Origin: Escherichia phage AnnaHegner_Bas87
Sequence record: PQ850594.1
DNA: 64,000 bases
Strand: one strand, 5' to 3'
A model generated the notes under the pieces. The model was not told the origin of the DNA and did not search any database. It saw only the letters and a program-made list of their open reading frames with translations. Positions 46,242 through 63,933 of this stretch are shown here, in pieces. Position numbers and translations under genes: made by a program. The stretch's first letter is position 1, and each line of letters opens with the position of its first letter.

Positions 46242-46249
46242 ATTCGCCT

Positions 46250-47467: not shown

Positions 47468-47478
47468 CTTTTACCTCT

Positions 47479-48208: not shown

Positions 48209-48243
48209 CTCACATAGCCCTCTGATACTCACGAGGGCTATAG
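48209..48243 (-). repeat. conserved hairpin element, copy A
   Basis: CTCACATAGCCCTC-loop-GAGGGCTATA, 9 bp stem, immediately 3' of gene 48247-48498. Confidence 0.6.
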
Positions 48244-48246
48244 ATG

Positions 48247-48498: not shown

Positions 48499-48731
48499 TA
48501 CAAACCTTTCTTAGCACGATCTTTGGCAGTCTTGCCAGTGCGAATACGGTGGGAAACATTAACCAGTTCGCCGCCTTCGACGATGGTTACGCTTTTATTT
48601 TTCGCAATATCGAATACAGTCTTCTCTGTACCGCCCAGACGAATCTGTTTAGGTTCGCTGTGGGTCTGAGTTGATTTAGACTGGAACTGGAACGGCTGAC
48701 GGATGGCATCAATTGCGCTAACTTTAGACAT
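48498..48731 (-). CDS. hypothetical small protein
   Basis: ORF only. Confidence 0.35.
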   Translation of the reverse strand: MSKVSAIDAIRQPFQFQSKSTQTHSEPKQIRLGGTEKTVFDIAKNKSVTIVEGGELVNVSHRIRTGKTAKDRAKKGL

Positions 48732-48758
48732 GCTTTATTACCTTACATTAAAGAGAGA

Positions 48759-49187
48759 TTAAACAACAAATTGGAACGCTTCGTATCCAAACTTGTATGA
48801 GAAGTCATGCTTGAATTTCACTACACGACCACGATCACGGAAAGATTTCAGACGACTAATAAAGCCAGCCATCGGCTCAGGGTCAATAGGGCTACGAATC
48901 TTCATAGCTACAGAGTGCAGCTTGAAGCGTTTACCAGTGCTACAGGCCATCATCACATACTCCATACGAGTAGTCCAGATGTTGAGCACCATGCTTGTTT
49001 TCTCCGCTGACCAACCAGTCTTGCGGGCGATTTCTTTATGGACATTAAGCTCCAAAGGAAGAGGGAATTGCTTGTTGAATGAAGCCGGATATAGCTTGAC
49101 CAGAAGGTCAATGTTTTCTTTATACGTTAAGTAAGCCAATTTCTTGCTTACGTTAGGGAATTTCCCAGACATTTTTTGAAGCTCCAA
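48759..49187 (-). CDS. ProQ/FinO-domain-like RNA-binding protein
   Basis: KKLAYLTYKE...YPASF...PLPLELNVHKEIA...WTTRMEYV...GKRFKL parallels the ProQ N-terminal domain. Confidence 0.45.
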   Translation of the reverse strand: MELQKMSGKFPNVSKKLAYLTYKENIDLLVKLYPASFNKQFPLPLELNVHKEIARKTGWSAEKTSMVLNIWTTRMEYVMMACSTGKRFKLHSVAMKIRSPIDPEPMAGFISRLKSFRDRGRVVKFKHDFSYKFGYEAFQFVV

Positions 49188-49371
49188 AACAGCGCCGAAA
49201 AGAGAGGCGTCATAGTAGCTAAAGGGAGGAGAGAAGAGGGATTATTTACTTACCTTTTTCTGTCCATTGATATACCAGATAACTGAACCGTCAGGCTGTC
49301 GTTGACCGAAGCCTTTCAAGTTAACCATTTCTTCTTCAGAGTAGGCACGTTTTCTCACTGAGTTTCTCCTG

Positions 49372-49629
49372 TCAATAGAAGGTGTGTGTAGAGTCATCGT
49401 TCATACATAACCAAACGAAGAAGACAATCACACAGAAAGCAATAACACCGAGAACTGCAAGGATTATAGTGTTAGCTAATGTGGTATCTAACACGCTTTG
49501 CAGGTACATAAAGAATTGTACGATACCACATAACCCTAGCACGACCCCAACGACAATGAGGAGCCAATATGTGCAGAGAAGGACTGCATCTAATAGTGAT
49601 ACATACTTTGGATGATCTTTATGTCTCAC
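49372..49629 (-). CDS. small multi-pass membrane protein
   Basis: three hydrophobic segments. Confidence 0.4.
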   Translation of the reverse strand: MRHKDHPKYVSLLDAVLLCTYWLLIVVGVVLGLCGIVQFFMYLQSVLDTTLANTIILAVLGVIAFCVIVFFVWLCMNDDSTHTFY

Positions 49630-49885
49630 TGATCTTTTCCACTAAATCCAGAGTTGCTGATTCAAATACAACACCAACTACCATATTAGGTGCCATATTA
49701 CGAACGTATCCGCTCTGCATAGACACGGCCCGAGAGTATTCAGAACCGTTAGAACTTTTGTTTACCTTCATGTAAAGGGTTTGCTCTTTATCTTCTTTCA
49801 GAGTAAAGAAAGAGCCGGGAAGAAGCCTCTGAACAGTCAGAGGGATATCTGCAACATGAGTCTTATTGATAGTAAGAACTGTCAT
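49619..49885 (-). CDS. small protein, PGDVFR-family-like
   Basis: LLPGSFFTLKEDKEQTLYMKV resembles the family N-terminus. Confidence 0.35.
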   Translation of the reverse strand: MTVLTINKTHVADIPLTVQRLLPGSFFTLKEDKEQTLYMKVNKSSNGSEYSRAVSMQSGYVRNMAPNMVVGVVFESATLDLVEKISET

Positions 49886-49888
49886 TGC

Positions 49889-50143
49889 TTATTCCTTAAT
49901 AGTTGCTTCAGCTTTAATAGGAATAACAGCAACATCTTTACGAGGTGCGGTCGCTCGACCTGTGTTAAGGCAGGCTACAAGTCTGTGCTCATCCGCACCT
50001 TTAATACACAGTCGAGTTGAGAACTCGGTAGATAGTAAGATGTACAAATCGTCATCTTCACTGTTAGGATACATGAAGCAATCCCCAAGACGCAGAGCGC
50101 TGAGTGGTATTGCGTTCTTACTGGCTGGTTTATTAACTTTCAT
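49889..50143 (-). CDS. small protein, PGDVFR-family-like
   Basis: LRLGDCFMY...VAVIPIKAEA. Confidence 0.35.
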   Translation of the reverse strand: MKVNKPASKNAIPLSALRLGDCFMYPNSEDDDLYILLSTEFSTRLCIKGADEHRLVACLNTGRATAPRKDVAVIPIKAEATIKE

Positions 50144-50419
50144 TTTACCACCTTTAGTTATGGACCAATTTATGAGAGAACTCTCGGAAGAATGCTTTCA
50201 TAAATAGGGGGAGGGGACGAATCCTCCCATATCCTATTAATTAATGTTGCATGTAAGACCTAACAATCCGATGCTGTAGTGGATAGCGTAAAACGCTTAC
50301 CGGCATTAAACCCAGCCCATGAGGGGCTTATGTGATTAAAATGCTCAACATTGAGCGGTTAGTTGATAGGAGATCTGAAGTCCTATCTCAAAGGACTCTC
50401 GTAAGAATCCTTCACGATA

Positions 50420-50674
50420 TCACTTAGTAAGAAAGATTATCAACTTATCCGCTACCCAGCCTATTAACATAAGGACAGGTAAGAAGAAGATAAAGATCAG
50501 CATAAAAGGCCAGAAGAATATCACCGTCCAAATAGAAAGTATATCAGGCTGACCACTCCATGAGCAGTGGAAGAAGTTGTAGAGTGTATTGGTTTTGAAA
50601 CACCATTTAACTGCGATGGCTGCTAACCACCAACCAATAACATAAATCAGGAGGACATACGCTGCTGTAACCAT
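50420..50674 (-). CDS. small membrane protein
   Basis: two or three hydrophobic helices, Trp-rich. Confidence 0.4.
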   Translation of the reverse strand: MVTAAYVLLIYVIGWWLAAIAVKWCFKTNTLYNFFHCSWSGQPDILSIWTVIFFWPFMLIFIFFLPVLMLIGWVADKLIIFLTK

Positions 50675-50901
50675 TCACCGTTCCATTGATAGTTTCGAGT
50701 GACCACGTTTCCGTGGATAAGGAAGTGCTGTCGGCGAAGGATATCTTTAACGTTGTAATAAGCAGCGTTTCCAAGATGACCTTCTTTGATAAGCCAACGC
50801 AGATTACGAATATCAACCAACAACAGTTTTACTTGCTGTTGGCATGAAGTCTTAGCTGCTGTTTCAAGCAACGCTTTCGTATCAGAATAATGACCAGACA
50901 T
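50647..50901 (-). CDS. hypothetical protein
   Basis: ORF only. Confidence 0.35.
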   Translation of the reverse strand: MSGHYSDTKALLETAAKTSCQQQVKLLLVDIRNLRWLIKEGHLGNAAYYNVKDILRRQHFLIHGNVVTRNYQWNGEWLQQRMSS

Positions 50902-50902
50902 A

Positions 50903-51229
50903 TCACCACTCCTTACCCTTTGTTGTTACAGAGCCACTACACTGTACACCACGGGAGATAAAGTCATAACGCGACCAATCACCTTGTGTCTCCATATCAC
51001 GCCCTGCATAAGCCTTCTCATCAACAGCACCGCCGTTGGAACAAGAAGCACCAGCATAACGCATATCAATTTCACCACTAGGAATCTTCTCCCCGCTGTG
51101 CCAACGGGAAACACAGACACCTTCTACCGATAATGCACACCATCCATCAGGACGATGCTGTACGCAGCCTGTAAGAGCTACACAGGCGATAAAGATACAG
51201 GTTAAGGTAATTACACCACCCCAGCTCAT
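50903..51229 (-). CDS. Cys-rich lipoprotein, superinfection-exclusion candidate
   Basis: signal peptide with lipobox LTGC; mature part has 6 additional Cys. Confidence 0.45.
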   Translation of the reverse strand: MSWGGVITLTCIFIACVALTGCVQHRPDGWCALSVEGVCVSRWHSGEKIPSGEIDMRYAGASCSNGGAVDEKAYAGRDMETQGDWSRYDFISRGVQCSGSVTTKGKEW

Positions 51230-51366
51230 GATCCCTCCTGAAGCGCCTTACGGCGGCTATCTCGCCAAGCCATCCATAGGTAGGTTTTGAGTTCTTCTCT
51301 CTCTTCTTCGCTGAATAAAGGAGAAGTAAAGATATCATCAAACCACTCATTAAACTCAGGGGTCAT
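51226..51366 (-). CDS. hypothetical small acidic protein (sub-60 aa, not in ORF track)
   Basis: AGGAGG RBS then ATG right after the tRNA; 46 aa; stop overlaps the lipoprotein start (ATGA). Confidence 0.35.
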   Translation of the reverse strand: MTPEFNEWFDDIFTSPLFSEEEREELKTYLWMAWRDSRRKALQEGS

Positions 51367-51384
51367 ATACCCTCCTACGTTGAT

Positions 51385-51460
51385 TGGTGCACCCTACAGG
51401 ATTCGAACCTGTAACCAACGACTTAGAAGGTCGCTGCTCTATCCATTGAGCTAAGGGTGC
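51385..51460 (-). tRNA. tRNA-Arg (anticodon UCU), with encoded CCA
   Basis: cloverleaf folded by hand: 7 bp acceptor stem GCACCCT/AGGGTGC, D-arm GCTC/GAGC, anticodon loop CUUCUAA, T-arm ACAGG-TTCGAAT-CCTGT. Confidence 0.85.
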
Positions 51461-51469
51461 TGGATTTGT

Positions 51470-51679
51470 TTAACTAAAAATACGCAAGGCCACATCGTGA
51501 CCAATATGACCGGGAACTTTATGCTGCTCTATTTTCAGACAGCGCTTACAGATACGAGATACACGAGACTCTTTTCTCTCAACTGGAGTGTCTTTAGCAT
51601 GAGTGATTTGAAGGTTTTCAGTGATCACCCACTCATGTTTACATTCAGAATCTTCGGGCTTTTTCTTACGAAAGAACAT
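51470..51679 (-). CDS. small zinc-ribbon protein, HEW/CxxC family
   Basis: start moved to internal Met (MFFRKKK) with AAGAGGTG RBS; CKHEW...CKRC. Confidence 0.4.
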   Translation of the reverse strand: MFFRKKKPEDSECKHEWVITENLQITHAKDTPVERKESRVSRICKRCLKIEQHKVPGHIGHDVALRIFS

Positions 51680-51687
51680 AACACCTC

Positions 51688-51852
51688 TTAGATCAGATCT
51701 GTTTTCTTGTGCAGACCACACACTTTACAGCGAGAGTAGATACGCAACCCTTGTCGCTCTCTGTCAGTAAGTTTATTTGTGATCGTCAGTTCATAAGTAG
51801 AAAGATCTTCCCACTCATGGAAATGAAATAGACGTTTGAACCATTTGATCAT
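51688..51852 (-). CDS. small zinc-ribbon protein, HEW/CxxC family (not in ORF track)
   Basis: MIKWFKRLFHFHEW...CKVCG, 54 aa. Confidence 0.4.
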   Translation of the reverse strand: MIKWFKRLFHFHEWEDLSTYELTITNKLTDRERQGLRIYSRCKVCGLHKKTDLI

Positions 51853-51861
51853 AATGATTCC

Positions 51862-52023
51862 TTAGATTACATCACGATGACTAACATCACCACACACCTT
51901 ACACTGAATAACGTAACGTGTGCCCTTGTCATTGTTCCCATCTGAATCCGTATAGACCAGAGGACGGGTGTTAATAATCTTCCAATCATGACAATGGAAG
52001 ACACGCTTTAGCCACTTAATCAT
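51862..52023 (-). CDS. small zinc-ribbon protein, HEW/CxxC family
   Basis: start moved to internal Met (MIKWLKRVFHCHDW...CKVCG). Confidence 0.4.
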   Translation of the reverse strand: MIKWLKRVFHCHDWKIINTRPLVYTDSDGNNDKGTRYVIQCKVCGDVSHRDVI

Positions 52024-52024
52024 A

Positions 52025-52282
52025 TTAAGCACACGCCGGTAATTCAATTAACTGAGGAGTACGACAAGGGCCATCCTCATACACACCTACCAGTGTTGGC
52101 ATGTAAGGCCCAGCGCACTGGTATTCATCGAACAGTTCATTGTAAGTAGGCTTCCACTTCCAAGCCCACACATAACCCATTCGATCAATGGCAATGTAAC
52201 GAGTGTTCAGAGGAACCTGCATCATCACATCACCAACTGCTATTACTTTCGTAATAACTGCTGCTCGGAAGTTTGTCTTCAT
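52025..52282 (-). CDS. hypothetical protein
   Basis: ORF only. Confidence 0.35.
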   Translation of the reverse strand: MKTNFRAAVITKVIAVGDVMMQVPLNTRYIAIDRMGYVWAWKWKPTYNELFDEYQCAGPYMPTLVGVYEDGPCRTPQLIELPACA

Positions 52283-52587
52283 GACTTTGCAGCCTCCATC
52301 ATTTTATTCATTTTAGCCACACCTTTACAGATAAGAGGCATCAATTCATCAGCCAGTTCAGTGGATAAAAGTTCAAGTCCACCTGACTTAATACCATTCA
52401 CTGCATTCTCAACGTCATCCGACAACAACATCATTGTTAACCATGGGGATTTTATTCCCACAGTAAAGCCCGGTTCGTACCGTGAGTGACTATAGGTGAA
52501 ATCTAAATGGGTCACACCGGGCATTTTAGACATTTGAGCACGGATGACTACCTTAGGATTGCAGCGAGTTGAAGATGAAATTGTCAT
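52279..52587 (-). CDS. hypothetical protein
   Basis: ORF only. Confidence 0.35.
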   Translation of the reverse strand: MTISSSTRCNPKVVIRAQMSKMPGVTHLDFTYSHSRYEPGFTVGIKSPWLTMMLLSDDVENAVNGIKSGGLELLSTELADELMPLICKGVAKMNKMMEAAKS

Positions 52588-52835
52588 GGCTTTTTAATCT
52601 CAATCTGAACGTTGACGACGAATACAGTATGGTTTGCACTGTACACTGAAGTGCCTATGATTGGCTTATCATCACTGAGGATTTCAACAGCGTGCTCAAG
52701 GTTAATCTTCAGATGAAGACGCCCTGATTCCATGAAGAAATCACCAGCACGTATCTCACCGAACTTAGCTGGCACACCGATAGAGGGTATCAGTATGTCA
52801 GTGCGACCTTTACGGTCAAATAAACGATTGAACAT
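52584..52835 (-). CDS. hypothetical protein
   Basis: ORF only. Confidence 0.35.
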   Translation of the reverse strand: MFNRLFDRKGRTDILIPSIGVPAKFGEIRAGDFFMESGRLHLKINLEHAVEILSDDKPIIGTSVYSANHTVFVVNVQIEIKKP

Positions 52836-52844
52836 ATCAACCCC

Positions 52845-53054
52845 TTATGTAATATCAACCTCAAACCAACAGGTAAGAGCTTTTTCATTGTTGCGTTTTG
52901 GCTCAAAGGATTTAACAACCGATAATACTCGGCGCTGTTCCCCATCAAACCAGATAGTTTCATCTTTTTCAGGGAGTAGGTTGTGTGCAGCACAAACGAT
53001 TTCACCTAGCACAACCTGTCTGCCATCTTGCTTACGAACTAAACGAATGTTCAT
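52845..53054 (-). CDS. hypothetical small protein
   Basis: start moved to internal Met (MNIRLVRKQ) with AGAGAGG RBS. Confidence 0.35.
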   Translation of the reverse strand: MNIRLVRKQDGRQVVLGEIVCAAHNLLPEKDETIWFDGEQRRVLSVVKSFEPKRNNEKALTCWFEVDIT

Positions 53055-53099
53055 AACAACCTCTCTTGTTAGTTTAAGTAAGAGTTGTCCCTTAATTAA

Positions 53100-53130
53100 A
53101 ACAACAAAGGCCACCCCTAAGGGCAGCCTC
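53100..53130 (-). terminator. rho-independent terminator (minus strand)
   Basis: GGCTGCCC-TTAG-GGGTGGCC hairpin (two G-U wobbles on minus strand) then TTTGTTGT. Confidence 0.5.
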
Positions 53131-53134
53131 TTAT

Positions 53135-53338
53135 TTAAGCGCAAGCACTACGCAGTTTGTTATTCAAGAAGCGATCTTCTGCATTATACAGGAATGCATA
53201 GAACAACTCTTTTGCTACATCCCGATCGCAATTGAGACATTTAGAGATCTGTAACAACAAACCATCACGACTATTAGGATGGTCAATTATCGCAAGACGA
53301 ATAATCTCACGAATACCAATGTCATGCTCAGCCGCCAT
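53135..53338 (-). CDS. hypothetical small protein
   Basis: start moved to internal Met (MAAEHD) overlapping an upstream 46-codon ORF. Confidence 0.35.
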   Translation of the reverse strand: MAAEHDIGIREIIRLAIIDHPNSRDGLLLQISKCLNCDRDVAKELFYAFLYNAEDRFLNNKLRSACA

Positions 53339-53728
53339 AGAACCAATCACCCTGACGTTTACGGATGTTAGTTGTCAGACGAAGCATGGCAGACTCAATC
53401 TTCAGAGCACCATTTGCCACTGCTTCCATACGCTCAGGACGGTTCATACGCTTGGTTGACTTCTTCATAACGTTCTCTCTTTGTTAGTGGAGGCAGTATT
53501 GCCAGTTAATATAAAGGGAAGCCCTACACGTTAAGGCTTCCGCTTGTACAAACTGTCGAGAACTTTCTACCCCTAGATTGTTCTCTATCCCAAACCGATA
53601 CATACCCCTACATATCGGAAAGCTGTTCGAAAATTAACAGGTTTTAGTCTATCACCGGATGTTTGAGACAAGTCTCGCCCTAGCGGTGAGCCATATGGCG
53701 TTGAGATTATAGTTAATTGAGGAACATC

Positions 53729-53763
53729 CTCACATAGCCCTCTGATAAACACAAGGGCTATAA
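53729..53763 (-). repeat. conserved hairpin element, copy B
   Basis: CTCACATAGCCCTC-loop-AAGGGCTATA immediately 3' of gene 53775-54005. Confidence 0.6.
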
Positions 53764-53774
53764 GTCGATGTTAC

Positions 53775-54005
53775 TTAACCATTGATATGAGTTACTTGAA
53801 CATCAGGTACAGGGATGACTTCATGGTCTTCCTGTAATTGGAACAGTGTCCCCTGACTAAGACCAACCACACGACGCATATCGTTAAGGCTAGTGTCTGT
53901 CTTTAGGTAGACATTTTCAGAGTTAGTTGGTAAACGGAACACATCTCCCGGACGTAACTCACTGAGCTTTTTAGTAACAACTACAGAGAAGAGATTAATT
54001 TTCAT
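53775..54005 (-). CDS. small protein, PGDVFR family
   Basis: LRPGDVFRL...GTLFQLQEDHEVIPVP. Confidence 0.45.
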   Translation of the reverse strand: MKINLFSVVVTKKLSELRPGDVFRLPTNSENVYLKTDTSLNDMRRVVGLSQGTLFQLQEDHEVIPVPDVQVTHING

Positions 54006-54178
54006 TTGATTAACACCAAATCAGTACGACGTTCGAAGGAAGGAGAAGATTCACCATTCCACTGAACAAGATAACAGAGAACACCATCAATCGTTGTTCT
54101 CCGACGAATAACACCTGTTTGAGTACCGCCAACAAGGCGAACAGTGTTACCAGTGGTAAACTTAACCTTTGAGCGCAT
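54002..54178 (-). CDS. hypothetical small basic protein
   Basis: start moved to internal Met; overlaps the 3' end of the upstream gene. Confidence 0.3.
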   Translation of the reverse strand: MRSKVKFTTGNTVRLVGGTQTGVIRRRTTIDGVLCYLVQWNGESSPSFERRTDLVLIK

Positions 54179-54467
54179 CCTCTGTTTCCTCATTCTGGCG
54201 TTTAATTTCTTCAGTGAGTTGCTTGTTGAGATCTTGAATACGTTTAATCTCCCAACCCAAAGAAGCCAAACGATCATTACGTGCTTCAATTTGCTCCTGC
54301 ATCTTGAGCAGTTTGGAACGAACATCAGCATTAAAGACTTCCTCTTGCTCAAGAAGGAACTCATAACGACGCTTCCAGCTTGCTGACTTATTACTTAACG
54401 CAATAAATCCTAGAACAGAAATCGTTACGGTGAGTACGAGAAGGAATCTATAAACCTCTAAAGTCAT
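54162..54467 (-). CDS. membrane-anchored coiled-coil protein
   Basis: N-terminal TM (FLLVLTVTISVLGFIAL) then heptad-rich Glu/Lys/Leu/Gln segment. Confidence 0.45.
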   Translation of the reverse strand: MTLEVYRFLLVLTVTISVLGFIALSNKSASWKRRYEFLLEQEEVFNADVRSKLLKMQEQIEARNDRLASLGWEIKRIQDLNKQLTEEIKRQNEETEDALKG

Positions 54468-54668
54468 ATCTTTATCCTCTTAAAGTAAGATATTATAAGA
54501 AATGTTATTTAGAATTTATTATTTCTAAACTTAATTTCTATCAATAATTTTCAGAGGTCTATATACAGTCATTACCTCTGGTCCCAAATCACTTCCACTT
54601 TTTGCAGAGAAAATCATAAGTGTGTGATTTATAAGGAAATTTAGTTTGTCAATCTTGGCACCTATGAA

Positions 54669-55055
54669 TCAATCACGGGCACTATTATTGAACACTAAAT
54701 CACCACAATACATTGGATTGGTATACCACTTTGGCACCCCTTCGCTCTTACTCTGAAAGTATGTACCGCTGTATAAAGGCACATAACCTCTCTTCAGTGC
54801 ACGTCTTGCAAGCCCCTCGCTCTCTCTGATTGACTTCTTTATCAGAGGATTATCATCACGAATCAGCTTTACATAACGTTTAAAAGGTTTCTCCTTCTTT
54901 AATAGGACGGGTATCCACTCGAACTGGTTTCGTTGATTTATAACCTGCTCGGCAGTCAGTTTTCGTTGTGACATTCTGTTTATTACGGTATCCGCAACTA
55001 ATGCTTTACATGCGGTTGGCTGGTTCCCTGCCTCATAATAAATAGTCAATGTCAA
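54669..55055 (-). CDS. SleB/CwlJ-like cell-wall hydrolase domain protein
   Basis: IYYEAGNQPTACKALVADTVINR...QFEW and later ARRALKRGYVPLY..TYF parallel the Hydrolase_2 pattern. Confidence 0.5.
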   Translation of the reverse strand: MTLTIYYEAGNQPTACKALVADTVINRMSQRKLTAEQVINQRNQFEWIPVLLKKEKPFKRYVKLIRDDNPLIKKSIRESEGLARRALKRGYVPLYSGTYFQSKSEGVPKWYTNPMYCGDLVFNNSARD

Positions 55056-55107
55056 AAGTAGCTGGGCCGTTGTTATCAGAACTTACTACCCCCTTGTTTT
55101 ACGGGCA

Positions 55108-55134
55108 TAAAAAAGCCCCATCCGAAGACGGGGC
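55108..55134 (-). terminator. rho-independent terminator (minus strand)
   Basis: GCCCCG-loop-TGGGGC hairpin followed on minus strand by TTTTTTAT. Confidence 0.5.
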
Positions 55135-55373
55135 GACCTGAAAGAGTGAACATGACCTCACTCATTTAAGAATCCTCGTAAAGACTCTTAAAAAAGAGGC
55201 CTCGTTAAAGGCCCGGTCAAATGACCATCCAATAGGGATTGAACCATGCCAATGATTCACAAAGGGAGTTCCCTTTAGGCATCACTAGCTACGCAAAAAG
55301 CCGCACAAAGGCGGCAGACAAAAAGACGCTCAAGAAGAGCGTCATAGTAGTTGACCACTGGTACAGAAGGGGC

Positions 55374-55817
55374 TTACTTAACTCTTGCTGTTTTGATTGG
55401 GTCAATATATTTTTCAACTCCCCATTTATGTTTACTATCAGCGTAGAAAACATCTGGTGCACATTGGCTAGTAGTAGGAAATGCTTTCGGTGGCTTAGTG
55501 CTACCTTTATTCTTCTGCTTACCTTTAGTGCGACCATTACAGAAGATTTCTAAACGTTTCTCTTCTTCTGTTTTCGCTGCACCGTTGGTTAACAAGGAAC
55601 GCTTATGATCAGCAAGAAGAAGCGCATCAGCACGGTGAACACGACGACCTAACACCTTCGCTACGGTAGAAGGTTTATGTTCTTGAGCGGCTTGTTTGAT
55701 AGCTCTTCGTTTAAGGCTACGTTTGCTAATATGGTTAACAGCGGCTGGCTTTTCTTTTTCCAGCTCACTCATAGAGAACACTCGTCCGCCTTTCATGCTG
55801 ATTTTAGATTTAGCCAT
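55374..55817 (-). CDS. hypothetical basic protein
   Basis: Lys/Arg-rich 147 aa ORF. Confidence 0.4.
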   Translation of the reverse strand: MAKSKISMKGGRVFSMSELEKEKPAAVNHISKRSLKRRAIKQAAQEHKPSTVAKVLGRRVHRADALLLADHKRSLLTNGAAKTEEEKRLEIFCNGRTKGKQKNKGSTKPPKAFPTTSQCAPDVFYADSKHKWGVEKYIDPIKTARVK

Positions 55818-55887
55818 TTCTTTATTCCTTTCGCTGATAAATTATATCGTGCAAGCCTTACCATACAGCAAGGCTTAACCAAATAAC

Positions 55888-56097
55888 TTAATCAATTAAA
55901 CTAAATGACTTCCAACTACGTGTAATTGCTACTTTTTCGCCATCAAAGAGAACACTTACAGAGATCAGTTTACCGCGACAACTGGATACCGTGGTAATAC
56001 GTCCGGTTAATGCCTTACCTTTATTCAGGTAGTGATAGCGGACACGACGTCCTAACAAACGAGTAGCTTTCTTCTCTAACGTGCTTAAGCTGGTCAT
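55888..56097 (-). CDS. hypothetical small protein
   Basis: ORF only. Confidence 0.35.
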   Translation of the reverse strand: MTSLSTLEKKATRLLGRRVRYHYLNKGKALTGRITTVSSCRGKLISVSVLFDGEKVAITRSWKSFSLID

Positions 56098-56318
56098 TAA
56101 ATAGCCCCTTTATATTGGAGTGATCTTACACGACGATACATAACAGTTGATGCACTAATCGCCGCTTGTTTTCTTTCGTGCTCATGCTGATTCTTTTTAA
56201 TCTTATCCATCTCGGCATCGTTACGACGACGCTGTAGTATTCTGCTACATTTGCGATGGTTGTTATTAGCACGTGCTTTCTTACAGATAGGGCACAAATG
56301 GGATTGAGTTAAGATCAT
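56097..56318 (-). CDS. hypothetical small Cys-containing basic protein
   Basis: CPICKKARANNNHRKC. Confidence 0.35.
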   Translation of the reverse strand: MILTQSHLCPICKKARANNNHRKCSRILQRRRNDAEMDKIKKNQHEHERKQAAISASTVMYRRVRSLQYKGAI

Positions 56319-56539
56319 TTGCGTAACCCCAGCTTACGAAGGAATCGGCCTAGCTTAGTTTCCTGCGTGATAGTGTAAGTAACAGAGTTTTCAATCAAGG
56401 CTTGTTCTTGAATCGGTGACGGATACCACTCGCCAGTAAGAACGCATTTGCATTCGATTCCGTATTTATCGGTTTTACGATAGGTCATGTTGTTGAGAAT
56501 GTTACGATACATCTTAACTTCTGTTTTCAGTTTTGGCAT
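56315..56539 (-). CDS. hypothetical small protein
   Basis: ORF only. Confidence 0.35.
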   Translation of the reverse strand: MPKLKTEVKMYRNILNNMTYRKTDKYGIECKCVLTGEWYPSPIQEQALIENSVTYTITQETKLGRFLRKLGLRK

Positions 56540-56593
56540 GGTGTTTATCTCTTTTTAGTTTCTTTGATTAGCACACTGAATCAATGCACTAGT

Positions 56594-56627
56594 AAAAGAA
56601 AAAGGCGCTACCCTTTCGAATAGCGCC
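56594..56627 (-). terminator. rho-independent terminator (minus strand)
   Basis: GGCGCTA-10 nt loop-TAGCGCC hairpin followed on minus strand by a T/C-rich run. Confidence 0.55.
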
Positions 56628-56646
56628 CCATGTGTTTTATTGTTGG

Positions 56647-57558
56647 TTATGCTGCCAGTTGACGCGCTGCCATAATCTCAGCGGCCTTGCGCAATACTTC
56701 TTCCTCTTCCTGCGCAGCTTTCTCGTTAGCTTTAACAGTCGAGGCGTTTGAGATACGACCGCGAAGGTTAGATAATTTCTCAGTCATTTCGTTGATCGCC
56801 TTTTCCATTTCATCAGCGTATGAGTCCAGAGATTCAAGCTCTTTAGTCGAGGCATTAATCAGGTAGTCATCGCTGATAGAAACAGTTGAAGCGGTTACTT
56901 TCTTAAGGAGTGAATCGAAAGTTTTCTTAACTTTGCCTACTTCTTCACTCAATGCGATAGTATTGTCAGAAGATGCGCCGTTGCGTTCATCTGCCAGTAG
57001 TGCCGCTTCAATACGGATTGCAGCCAGACGGTCAACCAGTGCATAAATATCCTGATTAAAGTTTTCGTTAACCTTCTGGTTGATCTGGTTTGCTACCGGA
57101 ACGTTGTCGTTGCAACCTTTGTAGAATGCTGGGTTATCAACCTGCACGTCTTCACCTTTAGCAAAGCGTTCAAAGGAATTAGACCAGCGGGCGCGGTTTT
57201 GTTCCATTTTGGCCTTAACTTGTTCCGGTTTAGCATCCTCTTTCGCTTTCGCTTCACCTTCCAGATTAATCCATTTCTTTTTACCGTTCGCCCCGTCGCT
57301 GTTGTACTTGATCGGGGTTAAGAAAGAGATGGCAACCGCAATCACGTCTAAGTCACGATAACGCTCAGTTAACAAGAAATCAACCGCCGCCTGCAATACA
57401 TCCAGTTTCTTACCGTTGGTGCGGAAGTGCTGCAAATGGCCTAACAGGAAGTTAGAAACATCTTGTTTGATTGCCGCGTTGTTGCTACGAATGTTGTTAG
57501 CCAGTGCATTAAAGCCGGATTCGTTAACCAGATTAAAAACTTTAGCCATGATATTCAC
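56647..57558 (-). CDS. hypothetical protein, first long ORF after the ORF-free leader
   Basis: 303 aa; Ala/Lys/Glu-rich helical composition. Confidence 0.45.
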   Translation of the reverse strand: MNIMAKVFNLVNESGFNALANNIRSNNAAIKQDVSNFLLGHLQHFRTNGKKLDVLQAAVDFLLTERYRDLDVIAVAISFLTPIKYNSDGANGKKKWINLEGEAKAKEDAKPEQVKAKMEQNRARWSNSFERFAKGEDVQVDNPAFYKGCNDNVPVANQINQKVNENFNQDIYALVDRLAAIRIEAALLADERNGASSDNTIALSEEVGKVKKTFDSLLKKVTASTVSISDDYLINASTKELESLDSYADEMEKAINEMTEKLSNLRGRISNASTVKANEKAAQEEEEVLRKAAEIMAARQLAA

Positions 57559-57616
57559 CTTTCAATTGTAAGGGCACTATGCCCCGCTCTCTATGAGCTT
57601 TTTAAGTCACTATTGA

Positions 57617-57656
57617 CTTATCAATAATCACTCAATATCAAGTAATTATTGATAAG
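57617..57656. promoter_or_regulatory. perfect 12 bp inverted repeat, operator-like
   Basis: CTTATCAATAAT-16 nt-ATTATTGATAAG about 60-100 nt upstream of the 57558 start. Confidence 0.4.
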
Positions 57657-58468
57657 CGAGGCGGTCTTATCAGGAGTTAACCTTGCCGCCTCCTTATCCG
57701 TGATGTTTCATCTGGTATCTTTAATTAGTCGCTATAAATAAAGCCGACCTGATAGCGATGATCAATCATCACAATAAGGCAGTGCGTCCGACTCTATTTA
57801 ATTACTTTATCGTAACCGTCGGCAATATCGTCTACTTTGCTTTCGCTCCCGCCTATCCTTTTGTACTAACTCTCAATCGCTAACCATCGCCCACTACGGG
57901 AGGTTATTGCGAAAGAGTCATTAGCCGTCTAATACATTGACGTTTTATATCTTTCAGCAGGTTTACTACATAAACTGATTATGTACGCCATCAATAGTGG
58001 CCTCAAATCATTCACATCGTAAACGTTCACACTAAACCTTTTTGTTAAATAGCAATTTGCCACTTTTTAACCATTCACCGCCGCCCCCAATTGGGCGTTA
58101 ATTCGTCGGATTTGCCTACCCTGATAAACTTCTTTCACTGTAGCACCTTGTTAGCGATGGCCGCCGCTACCCTTTAACCGTGGGCGATTAGTTTAGGCCG
58201 TTGCGTGTACTCAATGAATCCGTTTTATCAGTGGTGACGTTTCCAGTTAAGGGATTGTAAAAACTGTTTACCCTGATAATTTAGGGAGTCTTACGCCGTT
58301 TTATCTGGTATGTTTTCCGATGGTTATTATCATCCAACATATTCAACCGATATAGGAGAATGTTTAAATTGTTAAAGAGCGGTAAATCTATCAGTGTGCT
58401 TTCTCACACTATGCAACTGTTAGCCGTTGTTACGCTTTTCTTAAGCGGTGAATTGCTTAAGTGTGCTC

Positions 58469-58497
58469 ATTATGAATCATGCTGTTTTAGCTGTCAA
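58469..58497 (-). promoter_or_regulatory. sigma-70-like promoter (TTGACA-17 bp-CATAAT), leftward
   Basis: on minus strand TTGACA at 58492-58497 and CATAAT at 58469-58474; part of a 38 bp repeat. Confidence 0.45.
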
Positions 58498-58955
58498 CCG
58501 CTTTTTTAATCTTTTTCGTCGTTCCCGCTGTTGGGAAGATATATCAACCAGCTTTGTTTGATTGAAGATTAAGCGGTAAGGCTTAACTTATGATTCATAT
58601 TTTTAAAGAGCGGTGAAGCATTTACAGCTTAACACATCGTGTTAGCTTGTCAACTCTTTTTATCATCTTCTTTTATTCTATTCCCTTATCTCGCTTGAAT
58701 CTTTGCGAAAGGGCAAGATGATAAGTCTGATTTGTCTTTTAGGAATCTAGTGCGCTTTCAAGCATCGACCATTTGAAAGTATCGAACAAATGAGGCTTAT
58801 TTTGTTGCTCATCGTCCGCCTGTTTCACGTATGAATCAGGAATCAATTCTAGTGGTCAACTAAGCGCCTTATAGTAATGACGTCGCCGCCACCTGTAAGA
58901 CAAATCATATTTTTAAAGAGCGGGGATATTTTAAGTCATCGCTGACTGAGTGCTT

Positions 58956-58984
58956 ATTATGAATCAGGCTGTTTTCGGTGTCAA
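58956..58984 (-). promoter_or_regulatory. sigma-70-like promoter (TTGACA-17 bp-CATAAT), leftward, repeat copy 2
   Basis: same arrangement and about 85 percent identical 38 bp block. Confidence 0.45.
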
Positions 58985-59161
58985 TACTATTTTTAAAGTA
59001 TTTTCACTTTCTAGCCTGATTTTTAAAGAGCGTAGCACTTTCATTGTGCGTCTTACTGTCGGTATTCCTACCGCTCCCCGTTGAAGCCTTTTACCGTGAT
59101 GCTAATCACCTATCGAGGAGTTTTTACTACTTGTTGTTACTTACTGCTTACTACGGGATTC

Positions 59162-59189
59162 ATATTACTATACAGGAAAACCCTGTCAA
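59162..59189 (-). promoter_or_regulatory. weaker sigma-70-like promoter within 85 bp duplicated element, copy A
   Basis: TTGACA on minus strand at 59184-59189 with TAATAT-like -10. Confidence 0.3.
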
Positions 59190-59393
59190 TACCCTTTTTT
59201 CAAATTATTTTATATCTCACTGTTTTATAAAGGAATTTATTTTAGGGAGGATAGGAACTACAAAGAAATCAGGAGGTAAAGGAACGTGCACGCGTGATAC
59301 ATCACAAGAAATGGCTTGTAAAGCAATAATAAGCGTCCTGTAACGCATCACAACGAGCTAAAAGGGAGTAAGGCATACAATCACCTTAGAAAT

Positions 59394-59417
59394 GAAAAAA
59401 GCGCCTCAAAAGGGCGC
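59394..59417 (-). terminator. rho-independent terminator (minus strand)
   Basis: GCGCC-loop-GGCGC hairpin followed on minus strand by TTTTTT; directly after stop of 59439-59765. Confidence 0.6.
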
Positions 59418-59438
59418 TTAGAGAGTCTTACGGATTGG

Positions 59439-59765
59439 TTACGGATTGGTGCAAGTGCCGTTACCGGATGATATTTCGTTCATCGACTCATCGAACAACG
59501 TCATTCTAGACCGCATCATGTGATCTATAGTGATTTGCTTTCCGGTAATTTCGTTAACAAGCATCGCATACTTGCCATCAACGACACGATGATCATAGTC
59601 ATTCAGGTCAATCAATACTACCTTGCTAGACTTCTTGCCAGTGTCGTAGTTTTCCATAAGATAGGTGCATTGCAGACCATCTAAACTGGCCTCGTTGAAT
59701 ACGGCAGCATGTGACACGGAAGAAACGGCGAACAAGGCAGCAAATACAGCAAATTTAATTTTCAT
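59439..59765 (-). CDS. small secreted periplasmic protein
   Basis: start moved to internal Met: MKIKFAVFAALFAVSSVSHA signal peptide. Confidence 0.45.
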   Translation of the reverse strand: MKIKFAVFAALFAVSSVSHAAVFNEASLDGLQCTYLMENYDTGKKSSKVVLIDLNDYDHRVVDGKYAMLVNEITGKQITIDHMMRSRMTLFDESMNEISSGNGTCTNP

Positions 59766-59857
59766 GATCCAACCCTTAAGCGGAACGTGCAACAAAGAAA
59801 AACAAGTCATAGATAAATGCTATGATACAGAGAACTAACAGACAATGCAAAAAATAC

Positions 59858-60133
59858 TTATGTAACATTACTCACCACTTTATCTAGATGATCATCGAAC
59901 GTTTCACAAATGGATTGCACTTCGTCAATATCTAATAGCAGACCGTGACGGGCAAAGAATTGAGCTAACTCAAGATAATCCGCACCAATAAGCATGACAC
60001 CATTGAAAGGGGCGATCTTAACATCTTGAGATGTTACCAATAATAAATTACCAATATCAGCAATAGCGTCATAATTCAGTGTAACGCCTACGCCGTAATT
60101 ATGTGTTTCAATAATGGCGATAGTTTCCATCAT
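59858..60133 (-). CDS. hypothetical protein
   Basis: ORF only. Confidence 0.35.
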   Translation of the reverse strand: MMETIAIIETHNYGVGVTLNYDAIADIGNLLLVTSQDVKIAPFNGVMLIGADYLELAQFFARHGLLLDIDEVQSICETFDDHLDKVVSNVT

Positions 60134-60396
60134 TAGTTATCCTCGATAGTCAATAACTCTTCCAGCGATAAGCCAGATTTAACCAGCAAATCACGATACT
60201 CGTTAGCATCCATCGGATCAAGGCCGGACAACTGAGCGATAGTCATGCGTGCACGTAATGAAGATAAAGACACTAGCGCACGGATAGGGATCAGTACAAG
60301 CCCATATTTACCGCTGATAACTAAATCACCATGCTGGATGCACATGTAGGCGTTTATCACGGTTGCAAATGATTCGTTCATTGAATAGCCTCGCAA
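60133..60396 (-). CDS. hypothetical protein
   Basis: ORF only. Confidence 0.35.
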   Translation of the reverse strand: MRGYSMNESFATVINAYMCIQHGDLVISGKYGLVLIPIRALVSLSSLRARMTIAQLSGLDPMDANEYRDLLVKSGLSLEELLTIEDN

Positions 60397-61238
60397 TTAG
60401 CAAAGTTAATAAAGGTTGTATAAACTGCTACACCGTCATTGTAAGCAGTGGTAGCGAGTACAGTTTCACTCACATCACCATAACTAACGAGATTAGTTAC
60501 AAACTGTAATTTCTCTTTCTCAACCTTCTGGTAAAGAGAATACGTCACCATATCACGATCACTATCAGCACGTTTCAATTTAATAACTGATTGAATGCCT
60601 GATTTCTCGTCCAACGGGGTAAGAGTGACACGAACATCTTTTACGGTTACAGAGTTAAAATGCACCTTCCAGAATGAATCATTACCATCACTGCCAACGT
60701 CACGGCAGACCATATCAGGAGCATTCTTAAACGTGCTAACAAAGGATTGCAGACCAGTAGAAAGAGAGTCTTTTGCCTGAACATTGGTAGCGATAGCACT
60801 AACACCGATAGCTGCAACCAGTGCATAAGAAGCCAGATTAACAGACTTCATAATCTTATTTGCAATAGAAGGCTTGCTATCTTTCTTCTTGTTCTGAATA
60901 GCTTCAACCATAGCAGACAAGCGGGCTAATACTGCGTTAACATCGCGGCAAGATTCAGGCCAATCCTTTTGAGTCCAACTATCTAAATTAGCCTGAATGT
61001 AACAGTTGATAGCATCTTGCATATCGGTAAAACCATTCTCTTTCATCGACTCTTTATCTTCACACTGTAAGGCGTTCGCGGTGGAATCAATGATAAGGCA
61101 AGCCAGAATGACAGAGTTTTTGAAGCTGGTACGAGCTTGCTGATTATCCATCCATTGAGAAGGCACACCAACGGAAAGACCTAACGAAGAAAGTACATCA
61201 TTTGCTTGATTCAAGTATTTAATTGCTAACTTTGACAT
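60378..61238 (-). CDS. membrane protein with central signal-anchor-like helix
   Basis: 286 aa; central MKSVNLASYALVAAIGVSAIATNVQA segment between two soluble domains. Confidence 0.4.
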   Translation of the reverse strand: MSKLAIKYLNQANDVLSSLGLSVGVPSQWMDNQQARTSFKNSVILACLIIDSTANALQCEDKESMKENGFTDMQDAINCYIQANLDSWTQKDWPESCRDVNAVLARLSAMVEAIQNKKKDSKPSIANKIMKSVNLASYALVAAIGVSAIATNVQAKDSLSTGLQSFVSTFKNAPDMVCRDVGSDGNDSFWKVHFNSVTVKDVRVTLTPLDEKSGIQSVIKLKRADSDRDMVTYSLYQKVEKEKLQFVTNLVSYGDVSETVLATTAYNDGVAVYTTFINFANCEAIQ

Positions 61239-61283
61239 TTCATTAATCCTTTCGGTTGATGTGAACTACAAACTACGATTGCA

Positions 61284-61311
61284 ACTATATATTAAAGGAA
61301 AAACCTGTCAA
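61284..61311 (-). promoter_or_regulatory. sigma-70-like promoter (TTGACA-16 bp-TATAGT), leftward, within 85 bp element copy B
   Basis: about 45 nt upstream of the 61238 start. Confidence 0.45.
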
Positions 61312-61424
61312 CTACTTATTTTCAAACTATTTCATAACTCACTGAATATAAAAGGAATTTAATTTACTAAACTTTCTTGTTCAGAGGAATGACTAACTAA
61401 AAGAATGTTACTTTATAACACTTA

Positions 61425-61975
61425 TAGAACGGGTAGCAGACCAACGGGATAGATAGATGGGTAAGACGTGCCGCATAGGTTAGCCAATGGGTAAGAAGCC
61501 TAACGAGGAAGGGGAAACGGGTGGGATATAATGTAAGTTAGTTACAGGTAACAGGTCAGACCATGCGGTAATAAATTACCAGTCAAAAATCTACTCATCA
61601 AAAGAAAAAAGAAACGCTGAAAAAGAAAAGAATAAAAGAAAGAATAAAAATAATAACTAAAGTAAACAACTACCAGTCTAAACATACATACATCAATAAT
61701 CCACTCATGAATAATCACATAAGTTATTACATTCAAACTATGGGGGATGGTCATCAATGGTATAGTTGCATAGTGTTACTAGTAGTTATCATAGGTTATC
61801 ATTAGCCTGATCATAGTCACTATTATAGCCCCTTAACAGAGGCTAGCCTTTCATCCTTCCTTAACATGAGTAAGAGAAATACGGGTAGGAAATCACTGGT
61901 TAGATATACATGGGTAAATAATGCATGTGTAATATCAATGGGTAGGGTATTTATGGGTAGGGATACCACTGGTAG
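61425..61975. repeat. iteron-like array 1 of (A/C)(T/C)GGGTA-type motifs
   Basis: at least 8 dispersed copies (e.g. GATGGGTAAG, AATGGGTAAG, CATGGGTAAA, AATGGGTAGGG, TATGGGTAGGG) in ORF-free DNA, separated by a purine-rich A tract. Confidence 0.6.
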
Positions 61976-62184
61976 CAGGTAGGCTAGGGCTTAGAGCTTA
62001 AAGGCTGATTGATTTCCTAAAGGCAATTGCATTGGTAATAACCCTTTTTTAAATGAGGACTCCCCCTTTTTAGGAAACGCGCTCGGAGAGGCTAGGTCCA
62101 TCCGGTCAAATTGAAATTTTAAACTCTTATATATAACTATATGCCCCAACGTTAGTTGTGGATTTAAGAATAAGGAACTATTTT

Positions 62185-62349
62185 ATGTGGAATATTAAGT
62201 TACTAATTAAGCAATTCAAATGTCAACACGAATACTACCCGATACGAATATCGAGAGGTGATGAACGGTTACACGCTTATTACAAGAGTACTTGGAGATG
62301 CGCAGACTGTGGTAAGGTTAGGAATAGTAAATGGGTGGATAGGCCTTAA
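62185..62349 (+). CDS. small zinc-ribbon protein, HEW/CxxC-family-like
   Basis: start moved to ATG 62185 with AAGGAA RBS (track start is GTG 62158); FKCQHEY...WRCADCGK. Confidence 0.4.
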   Translation: MWNIKLLIKQFKCQHEYYPIRISRGDERLHAYYKSTWRCADCGKVRNSKWVDRP

Positions 62350-62460
62350 TGGGTATGCCTTAATGTGGGGTAGCCTTTATGGAGTCCCTTTACTTCAGCG
62401 TACATGGGTTAGTACATGGGTGGGCCTTTAGATGAGTACGCCTTTATGGGTTGATCACTC
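62325..62460. repeat. iteron-like array 2 of ATGGGT(A/G/T) motifs
   Basis: 6 further copies, the first inside the 3' end of ORF 62185-62349. Confidence 0.55.
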
Positions 62461-62484
62461 TCTTATATCAGAGGAGATATAAAA

Positions 62485-62751
62485 ATGATTCTAGACTTTT
62501 TATCAGAGTTGATTCCTTACTTCCGCACTGAAAAATGTGCATTTAAAGTTGAAGAAGTTGGGGACACTGAAGTAATAACTTGTTTGGGTAGATTAGTAGA
62601 CCTAGACGATGATGAAGATTTTGATGTTACAATAGACCTGAGTTCATTGGGCTGGTTGTACATGAGATTTTGCATAACCTACAAACCTGAGACTTATAAA
62701 GACTATCGTTATAGTGATAACACTGACACTGAAGGAGAGAATGATGAATAA
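62485..62751 (+). CDS. small acidic protein
   Basis: GGAG RBS; Asp/Glu-rich, acidic C-terminus. Confidence 0.4.
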   Translation: MILDFLSELIPYFRTEKCAFKVEEVGDTEVITCLGRLVDLDDDEDFDVTIDLSSLGWLYMRFCITYKPETYKDYRYSDNTDTEGENDE

Positions 62752-63397
62752 TATGACAGGAACTAATACACTGAATGCAATCTATGAGAACATGGGATGT
62801 AAAGGCGAGGTTGTTTATAATGGTGGTCTCCGTCCTTTATCAGAGGACACTTTCTATCTGAATCGTGTTCATGAAACTACTGGAGGTAAATCCCGAGTTG
62901 AGATGGTAAAACAACTGGCTCATGGTTCTGTGTATGGTTATGCTCCTTCAACCCGTGAATTATGGGAAGGTTTGATTTCTCATACAGAAGCTAAGGATGT
63001 GAAAGATTATTTCACTGTAGCGAAAGAGGTTAAACGTAAACTTCCTTCCAGTTTAGAAGTTGTTCCGTATGTATCCGACAAACATGCACACCTACCGGAC
63101 TATGCCCGTGAGATGATTGAGATGATAGAAGAGGCTGAGTATGAAGCTCTGAATAACTATCTCAACTCGAAAGATCAATGGTCACGTAATGTAGTAATTG
63201 ATGAAGAAGGTAATGAAGTTGTAACGTGGGTGCATGTTAGTGAACAAGCTCTGGACCCCGAGCTTGAAGAATACAAAAAATTTTTGGCGTCCTCTTCTTT
63301 TGATGTAGAGAATGACAAATCTGTTCCAGTTAGCTGGGAAGGTGAAACTGTAGCTCTCCAGACTTTGTTCAACCTACACGTAGGTGATGTAGACTAA
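62744..63397 (+). CDS. hypothetical protein
   Basis: start moved to ATG with AAGGAG RBS at 6 nt spacing; overlaps upstream stop. Confidence 0.4.
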   Translation: MNNMTGTNTLNAIYENMGCKGEVVYNGGLRPLSEDTFYLNRVHETTGGKSRVEMVKQLAHGSVYGYAPSTRELWEGLISHTEAKDVKDYFTVAKEVKRKLPSSLEVVPYVSDKHAHLPDYAREMIEMIEEAEYEALNNYLNSKDQWSRNVVIDEEGNEVVTWVHVSEQALDPELEEYKKFLASSSFDVENDKSVPVSWEGETVALQTLFNLHVGDVD

Positions 63398-63408
63398 TAA
63401 AAGGTGTT

Positions 63409-63433
63409 GCCTCCTCTCGTGGGAGGCTTTTTG
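63409..63433 (+). terminator. rho-independent terminator
   Basis: GCCTCC-7 nt loop-GGAGGC followed by TTTTTGTT. Confidence 0.6.
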
Positions 63434-63462
63434 TTATAACGATAATGTAGAAGGAGTATAAG

Positions 63463-63933
63463 ATGTTTGGAGAAAAAGGAGAACTCACGCCTGCACAGGT
63501 AGCTGAGATTACAGGAAGACTGCCCGGAGTAACGGAAGAACTTGAATCCAAGGGCATGGAACCAAGCACAGGGAAGTTCACTAAAGGTAATAAATTTGGA
63601 CGTCCCAAAGGTAGTAGAGGTAAATTGACACAGCTCATGCTCGATCGTGTTGCTGCTAGTCATCTGTCTCCCGATGAAGTGTTGATTCAGATTTATGAAG
63701 ATCCAAGTATTCCACCCGATCTTAGATTCAAGGCTGCAAGTAAAGTCGCTGATCTGGTATATCCTAAGGCAGCTTCTGTTGAGGTTAAGATTGAGGAAGA
63801 GAATGTAATCAATGAAGAATCACTGAACGCACAGATTCGAGACTTCTTGACTGGTGCACTGAAAGTGGATGTGCTACCTCCAGAGGACTCTGAGGACGCT
63901 GAAAAGGAGGAGGAGGAAGCGGACGAGAGTTAA
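63463..63933 (+). CDS. putative DNA-binding protein, possible small terminase subunit
   Basis: GGAG RBS; basic KGNKFGRPKGSRGK patch and acidic C-terminal tail; position ahead of the missing packaging genes; weak. Confidence 0.3.
   Translation: MFGEKGELTPAQVAEITGRLPGVTEELESKGMEPSTGKFTKGNKFGRPKGSRGKLTQLMLDRVAASHLSPDEVLIQIYEDPSIPPDLRFKAASKVADLVYPKAASVEVKIEEENVINEESLNAQIRDFLTGALKVDVLPPEDSEDAEKEEEEADES

Follow-up and report, generated by a model that had tools for sequence, protein, structure and literature searches.

Predicted promoter-boxA cassettes and a conserved folded RNA in the gene-free spacer upstream of gene 124 in phiEco32-like phages

What does a phage keep in a long intergenic region in which no gene can be recognized? 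This question is raised by positions 57559-59438 of a 64,000-nucleotide stretch of DNA from Escherichia phage AnnaHegner_Bas87 (PQ850594.1; the whole stretch is called the window here), a spacer without genes whose neighbors are the homologues of phiEco32 gene 124 and gene 125. The source of the window is a phiEco32-like podophage, and within the subfamily Gordonclarkvirinae ∼100 podophages of Escherichia and Shigella (phiEco32, SU10, EK010, SU7 and others) match the segment with 77-97% identity; in phiEco32 itself, its counterpart is the unannotated stretch 72787-74730 that separates these two genes. The gene-free gap and the promoters in it are previously known for this phage group: the SU10 paper describes three predicted sigma-70 promoters in the spacer, as in phiEco32, and its supplementary table gives the three that we call Pb, Pc and Pd. 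What appears to be new, judged from the sequence comparisons presented here, is a set of promoter-boxA cassettes together with a large RNA family, and with them the prospect of boxA-dependent transcription of a long untranslated RNA in a virulent phage. The cassettes and the RNA family are absent from the searchable literature, and boxA is nowhere named together with phiEco32 in the literature searched; two primary phiEco32 papers, Savalia 2008 and Pavlova 2012, which reportedly contain the mapping of the phiEco32 promoters, lie outside that search.

We consider it likely that the segment serves the main early transcription unit as its control region and long leader, operating by the mechanism set out below, in which host polymerase starts at several promoters, is modified at boxA and completes a long, folded and untranslated RNA before it enters gene 124. 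The comparisons use two alignments, A1 with 20 close genomes and A2 with 17 close and 9 distant genomes (26 in all), aligned by sequence only. The nine distant metagenomic relatives were found via their gene 124 homologues, which have 45-70% amino-acid identity.

Both sequence and conservation directly support the promoters. Four predicted sigma-70 promoters, Pa to Pd, face leftward in the spacer (Table 1), with near-consensus -35 and -10 elements, 16-17 bp spacers and positions that are kept in relatives, and they probably represent tandem strong host-type early promoters. Two of them, Pb and Pd, are the near-consensus leftward promoters that an initial annotation of this DNA had placed on a repeat; a consensus scan gives the same coordinates, and the repeat is real, with 78% identity over 54 nucleotides (nt) (family D2, 58463-58516 versus 58950-59003). 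The scan also finds the third, weaker leftward promoter of that annotation, Pa, at 59189..59162 with 10/12 matches. Pc is absent from both the scan output and the initial annotation, and was found by reading the transcribed strand. The raw count of promoter-like sites in the scan is not above chance (14 versus 10.1 +/- 3.1 expected). Near-consensus promoters are kept in the relatives examined (20 of 20 close genomes, and most distant ones), and a promoter is found ∼75-110 nt 5' of the last boxA in seven of the nine distant relatives.

The transcribed strand of the spacer also carries a four-copy repeat, which reads CGCTCTTTAAAAAT in three copies and CGCTCTTTAACAAT in one. All four copies are a perfect match to the gamma-proteobacterial boxA consensus GYTCTTTAANA, and boxA copies vary among themselves at the N position of this consensus. 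Exact GCTCTTTAA sites occur four times on the two strands of the 64-kb window, all on the minus strand and within 660 nt of spacer sequence, and the exact 14-mer CGCTCTTTAAMAAT is present four times. Each boxA is 10-120 nt downstream of an inferred promoter start, usually beside a small hairpin. Orientation and conservation are likewise directly supported, as 106 boxA copies are found on the transcribed strand in 29 genomes (81 in 20 close genomes, including the window, and 25 in the 9 distant ones), compared to one match on the opposite strand across all 29 loci. Relatives have a mosaic of sequences in the upstream half of the spacer, and the 3-5 promoter-boxA cassettes per close genome are retained where this sequence has been replaced by another; that the replaced versions again carry cassettes is the pattern expected from selection on the cassettes themselves. 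The last copy, boxA-d, shares 16 consecutive bases, GCTCTTTAACAATTTA, with the rrnH ribosomal RNA leader of Escherichia coli, in which promoter P2 is followed by a GAAAG-loop hairpin and then by CTGCTCTTTAACAATTTATCAG. The hairpin 5' of boxA-d (58410-58393, helix 3 of A1) has compensatory changes in three of its six pairs, and distant relatives have a hairpin with another sequence at the same place.

If the cassettes were mainly a decoy, boxA RNA would draw NusB, S10 and SuhB from the host ribosomal RNA operons and the promoters would tie up polymerase, with host shut-off as the outcome. A cassette number that is kept despite sequence swaps, promoters near consensus and a boxA identical to the strongest-binding, ribosomal (rrn-type) form would all suit such a role, but the conservation and fold of the 0.85 kb downstream are left unexplained by it, and one boxA suffices for antitermination in rrn and CRISPR leaders. 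We therefore regard a decoy as improbable, and favor the cassettes as sites at which polymerase would be modified to transcribe the leader.

The spacer lacks coding sequence by every measure that we applied. Among substitutions in 20 genomes, the largest phase share is 0.34-0.45 in the spacer versus 0.51-0.89 in gene 124, that is, there is no three-base periodicity. The longest open reading frame (ORF), with 99 amino acids (aa) at 59044-59343 on the plus strand, has stops or frameshifts in phiEco32, SU10, YF01 and Paul, and the only ORF with a Shine-Dalgarno sequence, 24 codons at 59375-59301, has lost its ATG in phiEco32 and SU10. Thus, the initial view that the spacer holds no convincing ORF stands. 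Small protein genes have been annotated in the spacer in several deposited genomes (Paul, MN05, SU7, NJ01 and 101114UKE3), but the short ORFs in these records vary in place and strand between genomes; with no substitution periodicity, and with both the longest ORF and the only Shine-Dalgarno ORF broken in close relatives, we find it extremely unlikely that the spacer contains any such gene. The deposited short ‘hypothetical proteins’ are probably spurious, and an RNA feature would be the preferable annotation.

The region from the last boxA to gene 124 (58368-57571, ∼0.85 kb) is collinear in all relatives, with hardly any insertions or deletions. Its mean column conservation is 0.913, compared to 0.783 for the third and 0.931 for the first codon positions of gene 124, and the z score of its single-sequence fold is -4.9, compared to -1.7 for a gene 124 coding control. 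The fold consists of two domains, has 242 base pairs and is closed by long-range helices, with a row of hairpins on its 3' side (Table 1). Two nonamers that are 300 nt apart, ATCGCCCAC and GTGGGCGAT, pair between the domains to form a 9-bp pseudoknot. Across 26 genomes, 233 of 234 cells show this pairing, and TH42, NC-B and the distant relative d29 carry compensatory changes.

Covariation throughout the fold is extensive. In A1, 99.1% of the cells are paired, compared to 93.8% in shuffles and 34-47% in slid controls; in A2, the corresponding values are 88.3%, 76% and 36-44%. Of the 242 pairs, 74 have changed on both sides in A1, where shuffles give 34 +/- 3 and slid controls 5-11; in A2 this number is 164, compared to 95 for shuffles and 77-96 for slid controls. 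Counted as cells, changes on both sides number 291 in A1 and 682 in A2, while the shuffles give 79 and 180. The observed values were matched by 0/500 shuffles for A1 and 0/500 for A2. The pairing is also specific to one strand, since G·U cells outnumber A·C cells by 496 to 13 and the consensus energy is -252 kcal/mol for the transcribed strand versus -178 kcal/mol for the other. The region thus has the general properties of a structured non-coding RNA, namely conservation without a coding signal, compensatory changes and strand specificity, and we are highly confident that the RNA fold is real. Accordingly, the early suggestion that the untranslated stretch may act as a non-coding RNA is well supported as far as the existence of such an RNA is concerned.

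The strand-specific G·U excess and energy point to RNA rather than to DNA hairpins, and so bear on the alternative that the segment works as a DNA element, with the inverted repeats acting as DNA hairpins in, for example, a replication origin, a packaging site or a genome end. Both strands do fold better than shuffles (z = -4.9 and -4.7), and transcription-activated origins beside strong promoters are established in T7, but the strand specificity of the pairing argues against this alternative, as does the absence of DnaA boxes, iterons and an AT-rich dip from the spacer. Moreover, the GC skew turns at ∼61.3 kb, and the right physical end of phiEco32 aligns at window position ∼62093, so that, by homology, the spacer lies ∼2.7-4.5 kb inside the right end. 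The earlier proposals that origin or packaging signals, or the physical genome ends, might be located in the spacer are not borne out, and we judge a DNA element to be very unlikely; the folded RNA remains our reading of this region.

Table 1. Window positions of the features in the spacer and beside it
Feature	Position	Strand	Description
Predicted promoter Pa	59162..59189	-	TTGACA-16-TAATAT, 10/12 matches, A-rich stretch upstream; invariant in six collinear genomes
Predicted promoter Pb	58956..58984	-	TTGACA-17-CATAAT, 11/12 matches; early promoter there in SU10 list
Predicted promoter Pc	58626..58653	-	TTGACA-16-TGtTAAGCT, extended -10; remark ‘alt -10?’ in SU10 list
Predicted promoter Pd	58469..58497	-	TTGACA-17-CATAAT, 11/12 matches; closest to structured RNA; in SU10 list
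boxA-a, CGCTCTTTAAAAAT	59019..59032	-	∼120 nt downstream of Pa start; small hairpin GCACaatgaaaGTGC just 5'
boxA-b, CGCTCTTTAAAAAT	58909..58922	-	∼25 nt downstream of Pb start; hairpin AGTCAgcgaTGACT on 5' side
boxA-c, CGCTCTTTAAAAAT	58599..58612	-	∼10 nt downstream of Pc start; hairpin TTAAGCcttaccGCTTAA on 3' side
boxA-d, CGCTCTTTAACAAT	58368..58381	-	Nearest to RNA; invariant in 26/26 aligned genomes
Hairpin AGTGTGagaaagCACACT	58393..58410	-	Ends 11 nt 5' of boxA-d, at position of boxB in rrn leader
RNA domain 1	58066..58368	-	Closing helix 58368-58355 with 58079-58066
RNA domain 2	57771..58045	-	Closing helices 58045-58028 with 57786-57771 and 58025-58019 with 57835-57829
Leader 3' hairpin row	57571..57770	-	Helices 31-39 of A1, reaching gene 124 ribosome-binding site; compensatory changes in 32, 34, 36 and 39
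Pseudoknot 5' strand, ATCGCCCAC	58180..58188	-	In domain 1
Pseudoknot 3' strand, GTGGGCGAT	57886..57894	-	In domain 2
Gene 124 homologue	56647..57549	-	300 aa; directly downstream of RNA wherever RNA is found and contig is long enough
Terminator-like hairpin, strong	56602..56629	-	Immediately past gene 124
Intrinsic terminator	59399..59419	-	Closes upstream unit (homologues of genes 128-125); stem sequence varies, pairing kept in phiEco32, SU10, YF01 and Paul

Within the folded RNA there is an additional element at 58049-58038 on the minus strand, where the nearly invariant sequence GCTATTTAACAA differs from boxA by an A in place of C4. The 3' half of this sequence, TTTAACAAT, is kept even in distant relatives. 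The element may be another Nus site of lower strength, or a motif that makes tertiary contacts.

The RNA is closely associated with gene 124, as the two are linked in 97-100 phage records, in the 9 distant metagenomic relatives and in 6 further metagenome contigs, and among isolated phages the distributions of RNA and gene are identical. Part of this linkage is a sampling effect, because it was gene 124 that led to the distant relatives. A pattern scan with profile screening gave true RNA matches for 5/35 in IMG/VR and 8/24 in metagenomes, all of them close relatives; gene 124 is directly downstream in these matches wherever the contig reaches, and we rejected the idea that the RNA occurs without the gene. 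A host origin of the RNA was rejected, as nothing similar is present in 5,426 complete E. coli genomes. In Rfam 15, which includes GOLLD, ROOL, HEARO and OLE, no family reached the gathering score for the window or the nine distant loci, and at E ≤ 1 the region in the window gave nothing but one chance miRNA match. The RNA is unmentioned in the papers on YF01, SU7, 7-11 and gp79, and a paper on small RNAs that names Kuraviruses proved to be unrelated to it. As for the start of gene 124, the next gene was initially placed at 57558, and it is readable from a GTG there, but the ATG at 57549, which has a Shine-Dalgarno sequence, is the start that is conserved.

Two further observations concern the junction of RNA and gene. 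In NC-B (L019), the gene 124 product (gp124) is 99.7% identical to that of the window, while the leader RNA is only ∼77% identical, a mismatch that suggests that a recombination junction separates the RNA from the gene. Five distant loci (L022, L024, L026, L027 and L028; 81-100 kb where the contig is long) have 2.7-3.4 kb without genes upstream of the gene 124 homologue, an extra 1-2 kb on the upstream side, and since this gene-free region is flanked by opposite-strand genes, the RNA unit there is at a divergent junction.

The constant association of the RNA with gene 124, which follows directly in all three of the sets listed above wherever the contig is long enough, would also be expected if the folded RNA were no more than a cis-acting 5' untranslated region (UTR) of great length, which controls how the gene 124 message is translated or how stable it is and serves as a sensor or processing platform without a separate function. 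A candidate helix (helix 4 of A1), in which bases just 5' of boxA-d pair with the Shine-Dalgarno region of gene 124, is consistent with this explanation, but this helix is invariant among close relatives and is not visible by eye in the distant relatives d21 and d24. Furthermore, ∼800 nt, 242 pairs and a pseudoknot between domains are far above the size of known bacterial 5' regulatory leaders. We consider this explanation unlikely, although less so than a decoy. Our best guess, drawn only from the size of the RNA and from its constant linkage to gene 124, is that the RNA acts in its own right, either together with the gene 124 product or in cis on the gene. We would place an RNA with its own role first, a pure regulatory leader of gene 124 second, and a decoy for Nus factors and polymerase last.

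The leader resembles several known systems, among them, in its order of parts, the E. coli rrn leader, in which tandem strong sigma-70 promoters, a small hairpin and boxA also precede a long untranslated structured RNA. The two share the 16 identical bases of boxA-d and rrnH, and all phage copies fit the consensus given above. They differ in that no boxC was seen in the phage, that the phage has four promoter-boxA cassettes rather than one boxA behind two promoters, and that in the setting of a virulent phage the product is not ribosomal RNA and the transcript enters a protein gene. Because of the missing boxC and the different product, we treat the phage leader as an analogue of the rrn leader and not as a member of that group.

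Similarly, the nutL and nutR sites of lambda are found in a phage early leader, with boxA beside a hairpin and with terminators to be passed downstream. In lambda this hairpin is boxB, which has a GNRA-like loop and binds protein N. The lambda boxA is CTCTTA, while boxA here has the full rrn form CTCTTTA, and the hairpin is mostly 5' of boxA here and 3' in lambda; only boxA-c has its hairpin (loop cttacc) on the 3' side. The phage is not lambdoid or temperate, and no arginine-rich, N-like protein was seen by eye among the small neighboring proteins, none of which has a Pfam match; no search aimed at such a protein was made. Within the tests made, the phage leader does not appear to be a lambda nut site.

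In CRISPR-array and suhB leaders, boxA opens an untranslated transcript of unusual length and protects it from Rho (Stringer 2020, PMC7665894; Baniulyte 2017, PMC5725501). The phage leader is alike in that boxA heads such a transcript, but the CRISPR-array and suhB leaders are chromosomal and single-copy, belong to no phage early unit and are not followed by a large folded RNA. With T7, whose promoters A1, A2 and A3 are likewise strong, host-type and in tandem near a genome end, with a leader before the first early gene, the likeness noted in the initial annotation is correct for the tandem strong promoters and goes no further. To our knowledge, the T7 early leader is a few hundred bases long and has neither a boxA nor a large conserved RNA fold. 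Finally, GOLLD and ROOL are also large (hundreds of nt), multi-domain, covariation-supported and phage-borne, but there is no sequence or covariance-model match between them and this RNA, their hosts are different, and the RNA here is an mRNA leader behind boxA.

In the mechanism that we propose, host sigma-70 RNA polymerase would initiate at Pa, Pb, Pc and Pd, and each transcript would have an rrn-type boxA ∼10-120 nt from its 5' end, usually beside a small hairpin. By analogy with rrn operons, CRISPR arrays and suhB, NusB and S10 would bind boxA, and with NusA, NusG and SuhB the polymerase would become fast and Rho-resistant, as it is on ribosomal RNA operons and CRISPR arrays. The modified polymerase would then complete the 0.9-1.6 kb of untranslated RNA, enter gene 124 and possibly go beyond it. 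The final 0.85 kb of the leader would fold into the two-domain RNA joined by the 9-bp pseudoknot, and the Nus complex may assist its long-range helices during transcription. Nus-factor binding, resistance to termination and a role for the RNA are thus suggested by likeness to these systems. Downstream of the leader, the minus strand has terminator-like hairpins at 56629, 55343, 55315, 55214, 55134, 53541 and 53131, and we found no strong sigma-70 promoter behind the hairpins of this early region; if so many hairpins must be passed from upstream promoters, some processive antitermination is plausible. As a separate observation, terminator-like hairpins are denser than expected over 44000-63900 (24 versus 13.9 +/- 4), and several stand back to back at 55134-55343.

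Several points weigh against this mechanism. The structured part, heavily paired and richer in G than in C, would be a poor place for Rho to load onto the transcript, so that the need for protection from Rho is an assumption. The rrn-type complex suppresses Rho much better than it does intrinsic terminators; for this reason, passage of the hairpin after gene 124 is unexplained by the complex alone, and a further phage factor may be needed. In addition, no GU-rich element like the boxC TGTGTGGG is seen 3' of any of the four boxA copies (4/4), which were read by eye without a pattern search.

Other features of the surrounding sequence were noted. The terminator that the initial annotation had put upstream of the spacer corresponds to a terminator-like hairpin in the scan at 59419..59399 on the minus strand, and its pairing is kept in relatives. 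The gene 125 homologue (59439-59810, minus strand, 123 aa) has a signal-peptide-like N-terminus, MKIKFAVFAALFAVSSVSHA. It is called ‘terminase’ in several records (phiEco32, SU10, NJ01 and DE5 were compared) and in PHROG 13168, a label that looks like an annotation copied from record to record. An extra near-consensus promoter, TTGACA-16-TATAGT with 11/12 matches, is located at 61284-61311 on the minus strand, where it precedes the right-end homologue of gene 128, and no boxA follows it in the window searched for boxA. The only tRNA of the window is a tRNA-Arg with anticodon TCT (51385-51460, minus strand), as in the reports on SU7 and SU10. Genes change from the minus to the plus strand just past ∼62093 (window ∼61900-62150). 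Based on this switch, the aligned end of phiEco32 and the turn of the skew, the window seems to span joined physical genome ends, as it would if the record had been circularly assembled or permuted across the joined ends of the phage.

Large and intricately folded RNAs of bacteria and phages are rare, and their hosts are mostly hard to work with. This phage group is well studied and genetically tractable, and its transcription program (gp36, gp79) has been characterized, so that the role of the RNA can be tested directly. We suggest, tentatively, that early in infection a pseudoknotted RNA of ∼0.85 kb, made by a borrowed Nus machine of the ribosomal RNA type, might act alone or with gp124 in host takeover or counter-defence. 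If this is true, a large functional non-coding RNA would be on record for a virulent coliphage for the first time, and the ribosomal RNA antitermination system would have gained a new use. With the four rrn-type boxA elements, Nus-factor antitermination would no longer be confined to ribosomal RNA, CRISPR arrays and lambdoid phages but would include an early unit in a virulent phage. The elements also offer a candidate answer to the question of how such phages may get through both a long untranslated leader and the numerous terminator-like hairpins of their early region.

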